A stretch of DNA of 64,000 nucleotides from Dehalococcoidia bacterium (GCA_965242615.1 CBDESR010000004.1:722124-786123); one strand, 5' to 3'; positions 10,795 to 14,394 are shown, counted from the stretch's first letter. Numbers and translations: made by a program. The notes: a model not told the origin generated them from the sequence alone.

Positions 10795-11003
10795 ATTTTT
10801 TTGAACCCCCGCCCCCCATTCTTAATTCCTAATTCTAAATTTTTAATTCTCGACCCCTCCGGCAGCCAACCCCTCCCCTCCCAGATCGGCACCAATCGCA
10901 AAAGAGGGCGGGATTTTTGTCAAGCAAAAATCCCGTCCCTTTTTACCCTTTTATTACCGGCATACCGCTGGCATTAAAAGTCCTTGCCGCCGGAGGTATC
11001 CCA

Positions 11004-11621
11004 ATGAACCGCTACCGATTCCCTATTGCCATCCTGTCCCTGACCGTCTTAACCCTCGCCCTTATCATCACCGCCAGTCCCGCCCCTGATGCCCAAGCCG
11101 CCCCCCGCTCCATCCCTTGGGAATGCGCCAACTGGCAAGCTTCCCCCGCCGTTGCCGACGCTGACGATGCCCACGTCTCCGCCATCCTCGAATCCCTCGC
11201 CGCCAACCGCGGCAAAGCCATCTACTGCGCCATCGACCAGTCCGACACCTTCACCAAAGCCGAAACCTGGGCTGCCGGCCGCGACCGCAACGAACGCGAC
11301 GACACCGTCTACTTCGGCGAAAGCGGCAACTTCCGCGGCTTTCTCGCCGCCCAGGAGGTCTACCTGACCGATGGCGAATCCGGCGTTACCGGCATCAGCC
11401 GCGAACTCATTTTTGAGTTTCCCCGGGAGCAGCGCCGCGGCAAGAAAACCATAACCAAGCGCATGGCCGTCCCCGCCCTTCCCCCATGTCATTCCGAGGC
11501 GATAGCCGAGGAATCTAAAATGCCTGCCCTACAACACCGTACAACCCAACCAACCATCCCCGATCCAAAAGTTTTGAGGGGGTGCGGGGGAACTTTTACA
11601 CAGGTAAGTATCCCTTTATAG
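11004..11621 (+). CDS. Secreted hypothetical protein, C-terminus probably disrupted by repeat/IS insertions
   Basis: GGAGG SD, signal peptide MNRYRFPIAILSL...AQA; frame runs through the REP copy and the palindrome and stops at the IS junction. Confidence 0.55.
   Translation: MNRYRFPIAILSLTVLTLALIITASPAPDAQAAPRSIPWECANWQASPAVADADDAHVSAILESLAANRGKAIYCAIDQSDTFTKAETWAAGRDRNERDDTVYFGESGNFRGFLAAQEVYLTDGESGVTGISRELIFEFPREQRRGKKTITKRMAVPALPPCHSEAIAEESKMPALQHRTTQPTIPDPKVLRGCGGTFTQVSIPL
11487..11517 (+). repeat. REP-like repeat, copy 2
   Basis: Same sequence as 10627-10657. Confidence 0.75.
11566..11597. repeat. Left arm of a 66-bp palindrome split by the IS1595 element
   Basis: CAAAAGTTTTGAGGGGGTGCGGGGGAACTTTT is the exact reverse complement of 14229-14260. 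Confidence 0.9.
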
Positions 11622-12455
11622 GTATTCTCAACACGTGTTGGCATGGGTTAAAACAAGGGAAAATCCCTTTGACAGAGGAGCGGAATTATGTCCCAACGGG
11701 CTTATCGCCACGACTTGCGCTGCCCCCATTGCGGTTCCAACTGGATGCCCAAATACGGCACTTCCCGGGGGAAACAGACCTATCGCTGTGGCCACTGCAA
11801 GCATCGTCATACCCCGGAGGGCAACCGCCACTACTATTCGGAGCAGGTCAAGAGCCAAGCCGTGCGGATGTATCTGGAGGGCAGCAGCATCTCGGCCATC
11901 GGTCGGGTATTGGGGGTGCGGCTGGAAACGGTCTATTCCTGGATTCAAAAAAAGCCGTGGCGGCAGGGGAGACCTTGAACCTGGCGCGGGAGCAGAAAGC
12001 GGCCTTGCGGCCGGCCGGGGTTAAGGCCGTAGTCATTTCCCTGGACGAGGCGTGGACTTACCTGGGCTGCCGCAAGGGGGAGCAGCGGCAATCCCTGTGG
12101 ATTTGGACGGCGGTGGTGGTGGAAAGCGACGGGCGGTGGTGGCGGGATTTTGAGGTGGGGGGACGGGATACGGAGACTTTTCTGCGGTTGCTGGCGCGAT
12201 TGCCGGAGGCGGCCAAATACAGCACGGACCGCTACGAAGTGTATAACTGGCTGCCGCCGGACCGCCATGTGGCGCGCAAGGGACGGGAAGCCAATCGGAA
12301 CGAAGGGCTGCATTCGGTCTTGCGGGGGAAGCTGAACCGGTTGGTGCGGCGGACTAAGGGATACACCAAACAAGCGGAAATGCGGTTGGTTCCCTGGCTA
12401 TGCTGTGGCTCCAGCAAGGCTGGATTTAGCCACGCCAACACGTGTTGAGAATACC
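11621..12455 (+). mobile_element. IS1-family insertion sequence (835 bp) inside the IS1595 left TIR
   Basis: Perfect 22-bp TIR GGTATTCTCAACACGTGTTGGC; 8-bp TSD CCTTTATA (11613-11620 / 12456-12463). Confidence 0.93.
11688..12448 (+). CDS. IS1-family transposase InsA-InsB, fused by -1 programmed frameshift; 3' end probably frameshifted
   Basis: InsA CPHC...CGHC zinc ribbon + HTH (11688-11978); A7G slippery site 11947-11954; InsB DEAWTYLG...TDRYEVY...NRNEGLHSVLRGKLNRLVRRTKGY. Confidence 0.9.
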
Positions 12456-12470
12456 CCTTTATAACAAGTA

Positions 12471-12499
12471 TTGACAACAAGCAGCGTTTATGGTATAAT
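12471..12499 (+). promoter_or_regulatory. Consensus sigma70 promoter of the IS1595 transposase (leaderless)
   Basis: TTGACA-17 nt-TATAAT with extended TG; ATG 6 nt downstream. Confidence 0.8.
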
Positions 12500-12505
12500 A
12501 CGAGT

Positions 12506-13420
12506 ATGGAAAGATACACTATCAAACACTTCAACGAACAATTCCCCAATGACGATACCTGTCTGGATTTCATCAAGTCCGCTCGCTGGCCTGACGGCAT
12601 TCGTTGCGTGAAATGCGACCGTATTACCCCTCATTTTCGCGTTTCCAACCGCAAGTCCTACGCCTGTCAGTTCTGCGGGAGCCAAGTCTATCCCACTGCT
12701 GATACCATCTTTCACAAGTCCTCTAATCCTCTCCGCTCCTGGTTCTACGCTATGTTCCTGATGGCTTCCACCAGAACCGGAGTATCTGCCAAGCAACTGG
12801 AGCGCGAGATTGGCGTTACCTACAAAACTGCTTGGCGTATGTTCAACCAAATCCGTAAGATTATGTCCCAAGACCCCGACCTCTTCCTCTTTGGCCCCGT
12901 GGAAATCGATGAAACTTACATCGGCGGCAAAGAAATTAACAAGCACTTCAACAAACGCCTCAACGCCGGACGCGGCGTAGCGGGTAAGACCCCTGCCTTC
13001 GGTATGGTGGAGCGGGGTGGTAAGGTCGTTGTCAAAGTTACACCTAACACTAAATCCGAAACCCTGATTCCTATCATTCAAGAACGCATCCCCTTAAACG
13101 AAACTGCTACCATATATACCGATGAGTTCCCCAGTTACAATCAGTTATCCAGCCTGGGATACGCCCACGAGACAGTGAAACACCGGGCAAAGGAACATGT
13201 TGCTGGAAATGCCCACACTAACAACATCGAAGGCATCTGGAGCAATACCAAACGAGGTATTGACGGCACTCACCACGCCATCAGCCCCAAACACCTGCAA
13301 GGCTATTTGGACGCCTACGTCTTCCGCTACAACCACCGCCACGACACAACCCCTATGTTCGTCCAGTTGTTGAACCAGGCGGTTTCCGCTCTGCCTTCGC
13401 CGGCTGAGATGCCAGCGTGA
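12506..13420 (+). CDS. IS1595-family (ISXO2-like) DDE transposase
   Basis: RWPDG-CxxC...CxxC zinc ribbon, TIFHKS, YKTAWRM, VEIDETYIGG, IYTDE, HTNNIEGIW, YLDAYVFRYN. Confidence 0.96.
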   Translation: MERYTIKHFNEQFPNDDTCLDFIKSARWPDGIRCVKCDRITPHFRVSNRKSYACQFCGSQVYPTADTIFHKSSNPLRSWFYAMFLMASTRTGVSAKQLEREIGVTYKTAWRMFNQIRKIMSQDPDLFLFGPVEIDETYIGGKEINKHFNKRLNAGRGVAGKTPAFGMVERGGKVVVKVTPNTKSETLIPIIQERIPLNETATIYTDEFPSYNQLSSLGYAHETVKHRAKEHVAGNAHTNNIEGIWSNTKRGIDGTHHAISPKHLQGYLDAYVFRYNHRHDTTPMFVQLLNQAVSALPSPAEMPA

Positions 13421-13493
13421 GCAGTCGCTCAAACCGCTCCTTGGTCAGCACTGGATTTTTTTGATTTTTGGCATTTTGCTTGCGATTCGCCAT
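13353..13493 (-). CDS. Small basic 46-aa ORF antisense to the transposase 3' end
   Basis: AGGAGG SD then MANRKQNAKNQKNPVLTKERFERLLTLASQPAKAERKPPGSTTGRT*; too short for the ORF track. Confidence 0.55.
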   Translation of the reverse strand: MANRKQNAKNQKNPVLTKERFERLLTLASQPAKAERKPPGSTTGRT

Positions 13494-13538
13494 TTTGCCT
13501 CCTATATATTGGAGGGTATTACCTTGGCATTGACCGAC

Positions 13539-13636
13539 GGAGGAGTGTCTGAGCGGTTTAAGGTGCTTGATTAGGAATCAAGTAGGGAAGGTGCTAGTAC
13601 CACCAACCCTCGCGGGTTCGAATCCCGTCTCCTCCG
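13539..13636 (+). tRNA. Non-canonical tRNA: tRNA-Ser-type body with AGG (Pro) anticodon and extra-long variable arm
   Basis: Acceptor GGAGGAG/CTCCTCC, discriminator G; D arm TCTGAGCGGTTTAAGGT; anticodon arm CTTGA-TTAGGAA-TCAAG; 29-nt variable region; T arm GCGGG-TTCGAAT-CCCGT; followed by CCG, so CCA is not encoded. Confidence 0.88.
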
Positions 13637-13667
13637 CCGAGCAATGCCAAGGTAATCCGGTAAGGGA

Positions 13668-13976
13668 CTAATAAGCCCCCTCTGTTCGGAAACTGATATA
13701 CTCAGTTCCGTCCTCGTTATAAGCCGCAAACCTTATCCAAACACTCCGACCGTCCTCCAACCTCGCCCTTCCCCGGCAGTTAATACGGTCGTCAGTTTTC
13801 GTGACCTCCTCGATGTCCAAGACATCGACAATCGGAGACCCGCCGGTCAGAAACACGTTGTCCTCGGACAAGTCCTTGACCCCGTGTTTCGCAGTCTCGC
13901 ACGACGGCAGACCGCAAGCCCCCAGAGCTATCACGCTCAAGATACCCAAGACAGCCAAAGTGACAATAGCCTTCAC
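13668..13976 (-). CDS. Small lipoprotein, IS passenger gene
   Basis: GTG start after AGGGGG; MKAIVTLAVLGILSVIALGAC lipobox; two more Cys (PSC...NCRG). Confidence 0.65.
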   Translation of the reverse strand: MKAIVTLAVLGILSVIALGACGLPSCETAKHGVKDLSEDNVFLTGGSPIVDVLDIEEVTKTDDRINCRGRARLEDGRSVWIRFAAYNEDGTEYISFRTEGAY

Positions 13977-14228
13977 AAGAACCCCCTTGCAGCGTTTGGG
14001 ATGTAGGCACTCGTCACAGCGACCGACACGGCCAAAGCGTAAGTCCACAAGGGGGCGCAGTGCGCCCATATCCCTGCGCTGAAACGACTTACGCTTTTCC
14101 CGCTCCGAACCGCTGACGGCCCGGGTCGCTGTGACAATCTAATCATATATCACAATATCCCTCATTTGACAAGTCCCTTATTGCCGTCATTCGGTTACTA
14201 CTTGTTATAAAGGAATACTCACCTTTAC

Positions 14229-14260
14229 AAAAGTTCCCCCGCACCCCCTCAAAACTTTTG
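14229..14260. repeat. Right arm of the split 66-bp palindrome
   Basis: AAAAGTTCCCCCGCACCCCCTCAAAACTTTTG. Confidence 0.9.
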
Positions 14261-14394
14261 AGTTTGGGGAGATTGGGGGATTGCAGAGGGCTGGTGATGG
14301 AGGGTCGAGATTCCTCAGTCGATAGCACTGAGCCGGCCGGGTTCTGGTTTTGCCCGGAGGTTGGGGTTGGTATGAACCCGGCCGGGGGAGGGGG

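Follow-up and report, generated by a model that had tools for sequence, protein, structure and literature searches.

Background

Allo-tRNAs, or 'irregular tRNAs', of Acidobacteria and other soil bacteria are transfer RNAs (tRNAs) in which serine identity (a long variable arm and G73) is combined with sense or stop anticodons; according to the allo-tRNA passages of the paper on them, their genes lie near transposon-related and toxin-antitoxin genes, their proposed roles are missense or nonsense suppression or RNA-based regulation, and some proved active in E. coli while others did not (Mukai et al. 2017, Nucleic Acids Res 45:2776, PMC5389517). Here we analysed a tRNA gene that resembles them in concept. 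It is located at positions 13539-13636 of a 64,000-nt stretch of DNA from a Dehalococcoidia bacterium (GCA_965242615.1 CBDESR010000004.1:722124-786123, hereafter the window), combines a serine-type body with the proline anticodon AGG, and is carried by an insertion sequence (IS) of the IS1595 family. The host (genome G000) is a sponge-associated member of the Chloroflexota with an assembly of six contigs (3.44 Mb, 61% G+C) and a full tRNA set. Three further members of the same tRNA family, two with the anticodon UCA and one with GAA, were found in genomes G001 and G002, which together with G000 represent three species of genus g1.

The likeness to allo-tRNAs lies in the union of Ser-type identity with a non-Ser anticodon and in the mobile or toxin-antitoxin surroundings (a PaREP1/HEPN-like neighbour stands beside two of the relatives). 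The builds differ: allo-tRNAs are of the 8/4 or 9/3 type (12-bp branch), whereas the AGG RNA and its three relatives are canonical 7/5. A reading of the window made from the sequence alone (hereafter the sequence-only reading) had already called the RNA allo-tRNA-like in concept with a canonical fold, and both the Rfam alignment and all four family members bear this out. The host phylum, Chloroflexota, is another difference, and the allo-tRNA passages (PMC5389517) do not describe the defined multi-copy IS units and the long leader/trailer hairpins in which the genes of this family sit.

Comparable mismatches are known from eukaryotes, where an engineered yeast tRNA-Ser(UGG) with a Pro anticodon mistranslates proline as serine (PMC6827378, PMC9258585) and a human tRNA-Ser-AGA G35A variant inserts serine at Phe codons (PMC12993449). 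In what these sources describe, seryl-tRNA synthetase (SerRS) ignores the anticodon and serine is placed at Pro or Phe codons, with a toxicity that scales with the level of the variant, and the AGG tRNA would follow this principle; the GAA relative in G001 is the exact analogue of the human G35A change. However, these variants are eukaryotic, chromosomal, and laboratory-made or rare, whereas the AGG tRNA is bacterial, transposon-borne and multi-copy, with a predicted activity. In Streptomyces and relatives, tRNAProX is reportedly charged by a dedicated synthetase, ProRSx, and delivers proline at Ala, Thr or Asn codons. It would thus also be a maintained bacterial tRNA with a mismatch between identity and anticodon that serves deliberate mistranslation, but it is said to have its own synthetase, whereas here there is a single housekeeping SerRS and the direction is serine at a Pro codon. 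Stop-codon-recoded phages carry suppressor tRNAs that their recoded genes need. They share with this family a mobile element bearing a codon-altering tRNA, and the UCA relatives are formally opal suppressors, but here no element gene clearly needs the tRNA and the transposase in the window would be harmed by it.

Full-text literature searches returned no paper on IS-encoded suppressor or mismatched 7/5 tRNAs, although they did not cover the supplements of the allo-tRNA paper and are no proof of absence. The AGG RNA is, by its sequence, a canonical-fold (7/5) Chloroflexota addition to the mobile mismatched-tRNA kind, and comes with a small family of diversified anticodons, a distinctive flanking hairpin and a plausible translational role. 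Should it prove to be aminoacylated and active in translation, it would represent a missense suppressor that occurs in nature, has an ordinary tRNA fold and can spread horizontally. Altered codon meanings could in that case travel between genomes on insertion sequences, the most common of mobile elements, which bears on the onset of codon reassignment and on bacterial tolerance of mistranslation. Such an RNA would moreover point to a further class of genes that ride on IS elements and are overlooked by standard annotation (ARAGORN skipped the AGG gene and called a relative 'tRNA-Sec'), and the family could offer naturally tested scaffolds for genetic-code engineering, combining a two-tier variable arm of 29 nt and a Ser body with anticodons for opal, Phe and Pro codons.

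The tRNA gene and its fold

The gene and the inverted repeat around it comprise the following features (X1, X2, X4 and X5 are public sequencing runs).

13539..13636, + strand: class II serine-type tRNA gene (Rfam RF00005 46.2 bits, model positions 1-71; sequence; fold)
13573..13575, + strand: anticodon AGG, in the 7-nt loop TTAGGAA (13571-13577) (Rfam alignment; unchanged in contigs of X1, X2 and X5)
13583..13611, + strand: 29-nt two-tier variable arm (AGGG/CCCT, AA/AA internal loop, GGTG/CACC, 7-nt loop; fold)
13518..13532, + strand: leader arm of the flanking inverted repeat, ATTACCTTGGCATTG (repeat search; fold)
13642..13656, + strand: trailer arm of the flanking inverted repeat, CAATGCCAAGGTAAT (kept in a remnant in G002 and in a diverged X4 contig)

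This is a real, well-formed tRNA gene, and its first description was correct. The Rfam tRNA model matched exactly 13539-13636 on the + strand over the full length (gathering score 29, E 1.1e-6), which was the sole Rfam match in the window. The layout is GGAGGAG/TG/TCT-GAGCGGTTTAA-GGT/G/CTTGA-TTAGGAA-TCAAG/29-nt variable arm/GCGGG-TTCGAAT-CCCGT/CTCCTCC/G, with an acceptor stem of 7 bp, a T stem of 5 bp and the discriminator G73 at 13636. The Rfam alignment and the predicted fold agree on the intact 7/5 cloverleaf and on the CTTGA/TCAAG stem closing the TT-AGG-AA loop that the sequence-only reading had described, the fold reproduces its 29-nt variable region (AGGG/CCCT, AA/AA, GGTG/CACC), and the pairs G1-C72, G2-C71, A3-U70 and C11-G24 are all present in the sequence together with G73. 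The D stem has 3 bp and a U10.U25 mismatch, the positions for tertiary contacts (U8, A14, G18-G19, G15-C48, T54-A58) are all intact, and no stem is broken. With the Rfam tRNA model, tRNA-Ser(CGA) and tRNA-Ser(GGA) of the host reached 61.1 and 52.0 bits, slightly more than the AGG gene.

Annotation by ARAGORN took a different course. The sequence-only reading had expected it to call a Pro anticodon on a Ser body, but it called 0 genes in the window, the 29-nt arm being probably the cause of the missed call. Its odd calls in the rest of the host genome (97-nt 'Pro GGG', 87-nt 'Val GAC', 75-nt 'Pro GGG') do not show the hallmarks of a tRNA and were treated as false positives.

Folding of 13505-13670 gave the cloverleaf, the two-tier variable arm and a 14-bp leader/trailer helix (minimum free energy -70 kcal/mol, z -3.8). 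The leader/trailer duplex of the window gene amounts to -32.5 kcal/mol, and the values for all four members are -32.5, -29.6, -31.0 and -41.3; the leader/trailer duplexes of 47 genuine host tRNAs have a mean of -17.4 (standard deviation 5.6) and a minimum of -30.6 kcal/mol. The sequences of the arms vary from member to member, and in the GAA gene the acceptor stem continues without a break, by way of the CCA end, into this helix. We suggest that this hairpin may be a processing or gating helix.

Serine body and proline anticodon

Bacterial SerRS recognises the long arm, the acceptor pairs and G73 (with the set G1-C72, G2-C71, A3-U70 and C11-G24), not the anticodon. Bacterial tRNA-Pro has C1-G72, A73, a short variable loop, G37 and an NGG anticodon, and G35 and G36 are major identity elements for prolyl-tRNA synthetase (ProRS). 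The host encodes tRNA-Ser with the anticodons CGA, GCU, GGA and UGA, tRNA-Pro with GGG, UGG and CGG, and a separate tRNA-Sec. Its four tRNA-Ser genes all start with GGAG and have C11-G24, G73 and an encoded CCA, and the AGG gene has the same acceptor pairs 1-4, C11-G24 and G73. The variable arm of the AGG gene starts with TAGGG and ends with CCCTC, as in host tRNA-Ser(GGA), and begins one base past the anticodon stem; the T-stem 5' strand GCGGG is common to it and host tRNA-Ser(CGA), the closing 49-65 pair being here G.U and not G-C. These matches, together with the Rfam alignment, uphold the earlier claim of serine identity elements joined to a Pro (AGG) anticodon.

Compared with bacterial tRNA-Ser in general, the AGG RNA has the cloverleaf with canonical T and D loops, the long stem-forming arm and the SerRS identity set, and lacks a Ser anticodon (NGA or GCU). 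In the host, tRNA-Pro genes show C1-G72 and A73, and their variable loop is short; G35-G36 is the sole point at which the AGG RNA fits tRNA-Pro, as it has G1-C72, G73, the 29-nt arm and A37, so that the absence of tRNA-Pro features noted earlier (G73 and C72 instead of A73 and G72, a long arm, A37) is confirmed. Nor is it a tRNA-Sec (8/5 branch, 6-bp D stem, UCA), being 7/5 with a 3-bp D stem and AGG.

The D arm of the AGG gene, with its U10.U25 mismatch, was used as a pattern in a metagenome scan that gave at least 120 matching stretches, of which 80 loci were examined. Seventy-nine were tRNAs with canonical Ser anticodons (52 GGA, 24 CGA, 3 GCT) and one was not a tRNA, so the mismatch is normal for tRNA-Ser and no sign of decay, while U10.U25 as a mark of this tRNA family was rejected. 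Odd anticodons were absent from all 79 of these tRNAs. A metagenomic tRNA-Ser(GGA) (locus L170) shares its acceptor stem and D arm with the AGG gene, and two changes, or the gain of one A and the loss of another, suffice to turn GGA into AGG. By these comparisons the body of the AGG gene is tRNA-Ser(GGA)-like, and a non-Ser anticodon on such a body is rare.

The anticodon in independent contigs

Contigs of four public runs (X1, X2, X4 and X5) were compared with window positions 13300-13900. Runs X1 and X2, both from study P1, contain the entire stretch without change and may be the source of this assembly. In X5, from study P2 and labelled as a sponge metagenome, one contig spans 13315-13623; its differences, 3 substitutions and a 2-base insertion, are confined to the 224 nt upstream of the tRNA, and the 85 tRNA positions covered, with the anticodon among them, are unchanged. 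With AGG in contigs from two studies, assembly error, named in the sequence-only reading as a refuting condition, was rejected as its origin. A 1001-nt contig of run X4 carries a version of 13543-13655 that has diverged at 9 letters and by 1 gap over 113 positions; it has different surroundings and keeps the flanking repeat arms. In the samples X1, X2 and X4, the UCA-tRNA unit of the G001 type occurs at ~14-29x higher contig depth than the IS1595 unit of the window; as G000 has no UCA copy, related strains or species seem to co-occur there.

Relatives in sister species

The family has four distinct full-length members in the three genomes.

G000 (window): anticodon AGG, 2 copies, 98 nt, on a 1816-bp IS1595 unit
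G001: anticodon UCA, 5 copies, 92 nt with CCA, 74% identical to the window gene, on a 3188-bp unit with a DDE_Tnp_1/DUF772 transposase and a HARE-HTH open reading frame (ORF)
G001: anticodon GAA, 2 copies, 95 nt with CCA, on a 3795-bp unit
G002: anticodon UCA, 1 copy, 98 nt with CCA, on a unit ~76% identical to that of G001

A check put forward in the sequence-only reading came out in its favour: body and SerRS identity positions are conserved among the homologues, whereas the anticodon differs (AGG, UCA, GAA). Across the four sequences, 96.3% of the stem cells are paired (42.5-55% with slid partners) and 9 of the 20 stem pairs have changed on both sides, counts that come from few sequences in three related genomes and are inflated by this relatedness. 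Pairs 1-4, C11-G24 and G73 are invariant, and all four anticodon loops retain U33 and A37-A38. The UCA loop CTTCAAA is unchanged between the G001 and G002 elements, and compensatory changes separate the two UCA genes in the anticodon stem (two), the D arm and the variable arm. The G002 UCA tRNA also has the two-tier variable arm with changed stem letters. Although the sequences are few and related, the pattern still points to maintained tRNAs and not to pseudogenes.

Besides its full-length gene, G002 has a remnant (locus L041) next to a homologue of an ORF of the window's IS1595 unit, in which only the 3' ~60 nt of a window-type tRNA are left; it shows the CCG end, the trailer arm and the two-tier variable arm of the window gene, with changed stem letters. 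Both ARAGORN and Rfam label the G001 UCA relative 'Sec', which stems only from its UCA anticodon and long arm, the true tRNA-Sec of the host being a different gene.

Distribution

A DNA search of 60 relatives gave full-length matches confined to genus g1. A covariance model (R1) built from the four family sequences was run on 151 genomes of the family, and matches of at least 99 bits all came from G000, G001 and G002; the 27 best loci from other genomes were inspected and were all tRNA-Ser(GGA). A class II UCA pattern, scanned in 401 genomes of the order (a sample without G002), was found in G001 only, apart from two non-tRNA matches. A group II intron domain (Rfam 59.4 bits; L273:1140-1237 in G298) lies next to a chance pattern match in another genome of the order. 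More diverged odd tRNAs would be missed by such pattern and model scans.

At 80 loci of related IS1595 transposases (45-67% identical), mostly from Chloroflexota and Acidobacteriota assemblies, no Ser-type tRNA with a non-Ser anticodon stood beside the transposase (0/80), and the 12 hits of the tRNA model in these loci were regular tRNAs or weakly matching stretches whose distances varied. We therefore rejected the idea that such a tRNA is typical of IS1595 elements; from the matches confined to one genus and the 80 negative loci it follows that the tRNA is a cargo acquired within this lineage. The tRNA family itself travels on at least three transposon types.

The carrier element

The IS1595 unit of the window consists of these parts.

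12471..12499, + strand: sigma-70-type promoter TTGACA-17-TATAAT (12/12, TG extension), ahead of the transposase
12506..13420, + strand: IS1595-family transposase, 304 aa (Pfam DDE_Tnp_IS1595 145.3 bits, Zn_ribbon_IS1595 39.7 bits)
13668..14069, - strand: passenger ORF, 133 aa, small membrane-anchored or lipoprotein-like product with a lipobox-like LGAC
11584..11620, + strand: left terminal inverted repeat, outer part, severed from the rest by an IS1 insertion
12456..12500, + strand: left terminal inverted repeat, inner part
11621..12455, + strand: IS1-family element in the left repeat (DDE_Tnp_IS1 27.9 bits, 31-nt terminal repeats, 8-bp duplication CCTTTATA)
14198..14242, + strand: right terminal inverted repeat; identity with a second copy stops at 14242

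The unit spans 11584-14242 (1816 bp without IS1) and ends in imperfect inverted repeats of ~45 nt (GCGGGGGAACTTTT...). The tRNA sits 118 nt downstream of the transposase on the same strand, no terminator-like site was found between promoter/transposase and tRNA, and the 133-aa ORF is convergent. A second copy on another contig (G000:C5 1835773-1837588) is 99.8% identical over 12455-14242 (1788 aligned bases) and also contains 11584-11620; the two copies differ over 1787 nt by 3 substitutions, none of them in the tRNA, plus a gap of one base where the stretch ends. X1 and X2 have contigs of 1832 and 1844 nt, near the 1816-nt unit size. With the terminal inverted repeats, the Pfam-assigned transposase and the second copy, the claim that the tRNA is IS-borne cargo of an IS1595 element stands. 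The IS1 insertion probably crippled the window copy, and leaves its promoter, transposase and tRNA intact.

The assignment to IS1595 rests on the transposase with its zinc ribbon, for which 7653 homologues were found at E <= 1e-20, and on the inverted repeats and the presence of more than one copy. Members of this family make an 8-bp direct target-site duplication, and no direct duplication was found at the ends of either copy. Instead, both copies are centred in palindromic flanks that differ between the two sites (11554-11583 and 14243-14275 in the window), which is unusual for a DDE transposon. The surroundings of the element (11000-11600 and 14229-14316) are repetitive, made of ~450-nt and ~120-nt segments that each have dozens of copies in the genome (80-97% identical), and the outermost IS ends overlap the ~120-nt repeat.

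Proposed working and rival explanations

We tentatively favour, at somewhat less than even confidence, the reading that the AGG RNA is a working seryl-tRNA and acts as a low-level Pro-to-Ser missense suppressor at CCU codons. In this scheme the tRNA would be transcribed from the transposon, probably on the transposase transcript, excised from the leader/trailer hairpin, completed at its 3' end by a CCA-adding enzyme and serylated by the single host SerRS, after which EF-Tu would deliver the Ser-tRNA(AGG) to read CCU, and possibly CCC, as serine. Several features of the host suit these steps. A full SerRS match occurs once per genome, with no extra SerRS gene found, and the host has two PolyA_pol-type nucleotidyltransferase genes that could complete CCG-trimmed ends. 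Since the T-stem 5' strand is that of host tRNA-Ser(CGA), EF-Tu binding is expected to be near-ordinary. Among 1282 long ORFs (at least 350 codons), CCT is the rarest Pro codon of the host (6.2% of Pro codons, 4.1 per 1000), so the cost of mistranslation would be limited. Unmodified A34 may also read CCC, which accounts for 23 codons per 1000.

A number of observations weigh against a translational use of this kind. CCT makes up eight of the transposase's 17 Pro codons, including those of the nearly invariant Pro29 and Pro189, so that serine insertion would damage the element's own transposase, and the GAA relative would face ~37 Phe codons per 1000, with which its free use in translation is hard to reconcile. 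Maturation of the ends might be impeded by the long leader/trailer duplex. The gene specifies CCG and not CCA at its 3' end, whereas CCA is encoded in the 13 genuine host tRNA genes inspected (all four tRNA-Ser included); the Rfam score is the minimum of the family, and the G002 remnant has lost its 5' half and gives no Rfam match. Finally, the AGG form is limited to near-identical copies (two in G000 and the contigs of X1, X2 and X5), so selection on AGG itself cannot be demonstrated.

A rival reading, which we regard as unlikely though worth weighing, is that the RNA is tRNA-shaped but works off the ribosome, as a processing or stability module or a regulatory decoy for transposon transcripts, with an anticodon free to drift; RNase P, RNase Z or RNase III would be attracted by the fold and the leader/trailer helix and would set or shield the ends of the transcripts, or else a tRNA-binding protein would be bound. 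Duplexes at or beyond the host extreme in all four members (-29.6 to -41.3 against a minimum of -30.6 kcal/mol), with arms that differ in sequence, agree with such a role, as do the co-orientation of the window tRNA with the transposase without an intervening terminator, the position of the G001 tRNA just upstream of the HTH and transposase genes, and the presence in the family of an anticodon as costly for translation as GAA. Many allo-tRNA(UAU) species have been judged unused in translation, according to the passages on them (Mukai et al., PMC5389517). A mere processing signal, however, has no need of the SerRS identity positions, U33, A37 and the T loop, all of which are kept, and the unchanged UCA loop between elements that are ~24% diverged also speaks against free drift. 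To a similar and equally low degree, the gene could be a decaying hitch-hiker, i.e., a captured tRNA-Ser(GGA)-like gene that is poorly expressed and heading for loss, in which changes of the anticodon are neutral or mildly harmful. The missing CCA, the lowest Rfam score, the 3' remnant as the G002 counterpart, two G000 copies too similar to show selection, and the short step from a tRNA-Ser(GGA) such as L170, with its identical acceptor stem and D arm, are all what decay would leave; but the stems and tertiary-contact positions are intact, evolution across the family is compensatory, and odd anticodons, absent from the 79 look-alikes, occur in three kinds on three multi-copy elements of a single genus.

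Charging with proline, or with both serine and proline, through G35-G36 would turn the tRNA into an aid for translating a CCU-rich transposase in a host with little use of CCU, which we consider very unlikely. The CCT share of the transposase does exceed the 6.2% of host ORFs (binomial P 3e-6), and G35 and G36 are major ProRS identity elements. Yet the transposase has 51.5% G+C and a bias for T-ending codons, beyond which CCT is not in excess (Fisher P 0.16), and the enrichment is therefore unsupported as a specific match to the AGG tRNA; moreover, the acceptor end has G73 and C72 instead of A73 and G72, the arm is long, and the host already has tRNA-Pro with GGG, UGG and CGG. No archaeal-type (anticodon-only) ProRS C-terminal domain was found in the genome, and the host ProRS is thus presumably of the bacterial type, reading A73 and G72 too. 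Self-recoding of the transposase, with CCU meaning serine, is unsupported, given CCT at the nearly invariant Pro29 and Pro189 and a P/S alternation among homologues at position 75 only; the 133-aa ORF has zero CCT codons.

An extension of the seryl-tRNA reading, which we regard as improbable and offer as a speculation, would see in the hairpin-tRNA-hairpin arrangement a portable codon-misreading module, i.e., seryl-tRNAs for Pro, Phe and opal codons whose maturation is gated by the helix, so that mis-insertion or read-through is switched on only under some conditions (toxin-like action, stress, defence or tuning of the transposase); opal members may then have helped to make the use of TGA as a stop unusually low. 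At 61% G+C, TGA is expected to dominate as stop codon. In the 1282 ORFs, TGA is the least used (275, with 553 TAG and 454 TAA), and the genome has RF2; no excess of back-up stops was found behind TGA-ended genes.

The UCA elements offer a weak and rather improbable lead, namely that read-through of TGA by the UCA tRNA might make a fused transposase. In both elements (L034:2845-2983 in G001 and L042:2770-2899 in G002) the HARE-HTH and transposase ORFs lie in one frame, joined by a linker of ~45 codons in which the only stops are TGA, two per element; one TGA is shared and one is TGG in the other element, and as the elements share ancestry this counts as one observation and not two. A fused N-terminal part occurs in 0 of the best 120 homologues, 116 of which are 336-450 aa and four 489-490 aa long, each matching the transposase part only (53-71% of the query).

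Neighbouring genes and other observations

The 133-aa ORF has no Pfam family; a homologue with 56% identity stands beside the tRNA remnant in G002, and 23 representatives were found at E <= 1e-3. Its protein family is small and is built on a domain of ~100 aa, present singly or repeated, the best example being a 1485-aa protein with 10 matched stretches.

G001 carries an extra tRNA-Ser(GCU) (G001:C1:733751-733845, L283) without a counterpart at that score in G000. The window's unit contains no PaREP1/HEPN-like gene; such proteins are encoded beside the GAA tRNA of G001 (L039:2700-3515) and the UCA tRNA of G002 (L042:3840-4763), are 32% identical to each other and differ in orientation. The odd-tRNA units of G001 adjoin genes of the restriction-modification type (L039:4178-5329 and L005:1997-3091), one for a DNA methylase joined with an HNH nuclease, the other a large ORF for a putative fused restriction-modification enzyme, which gives these surroundings a defence-island-like character.

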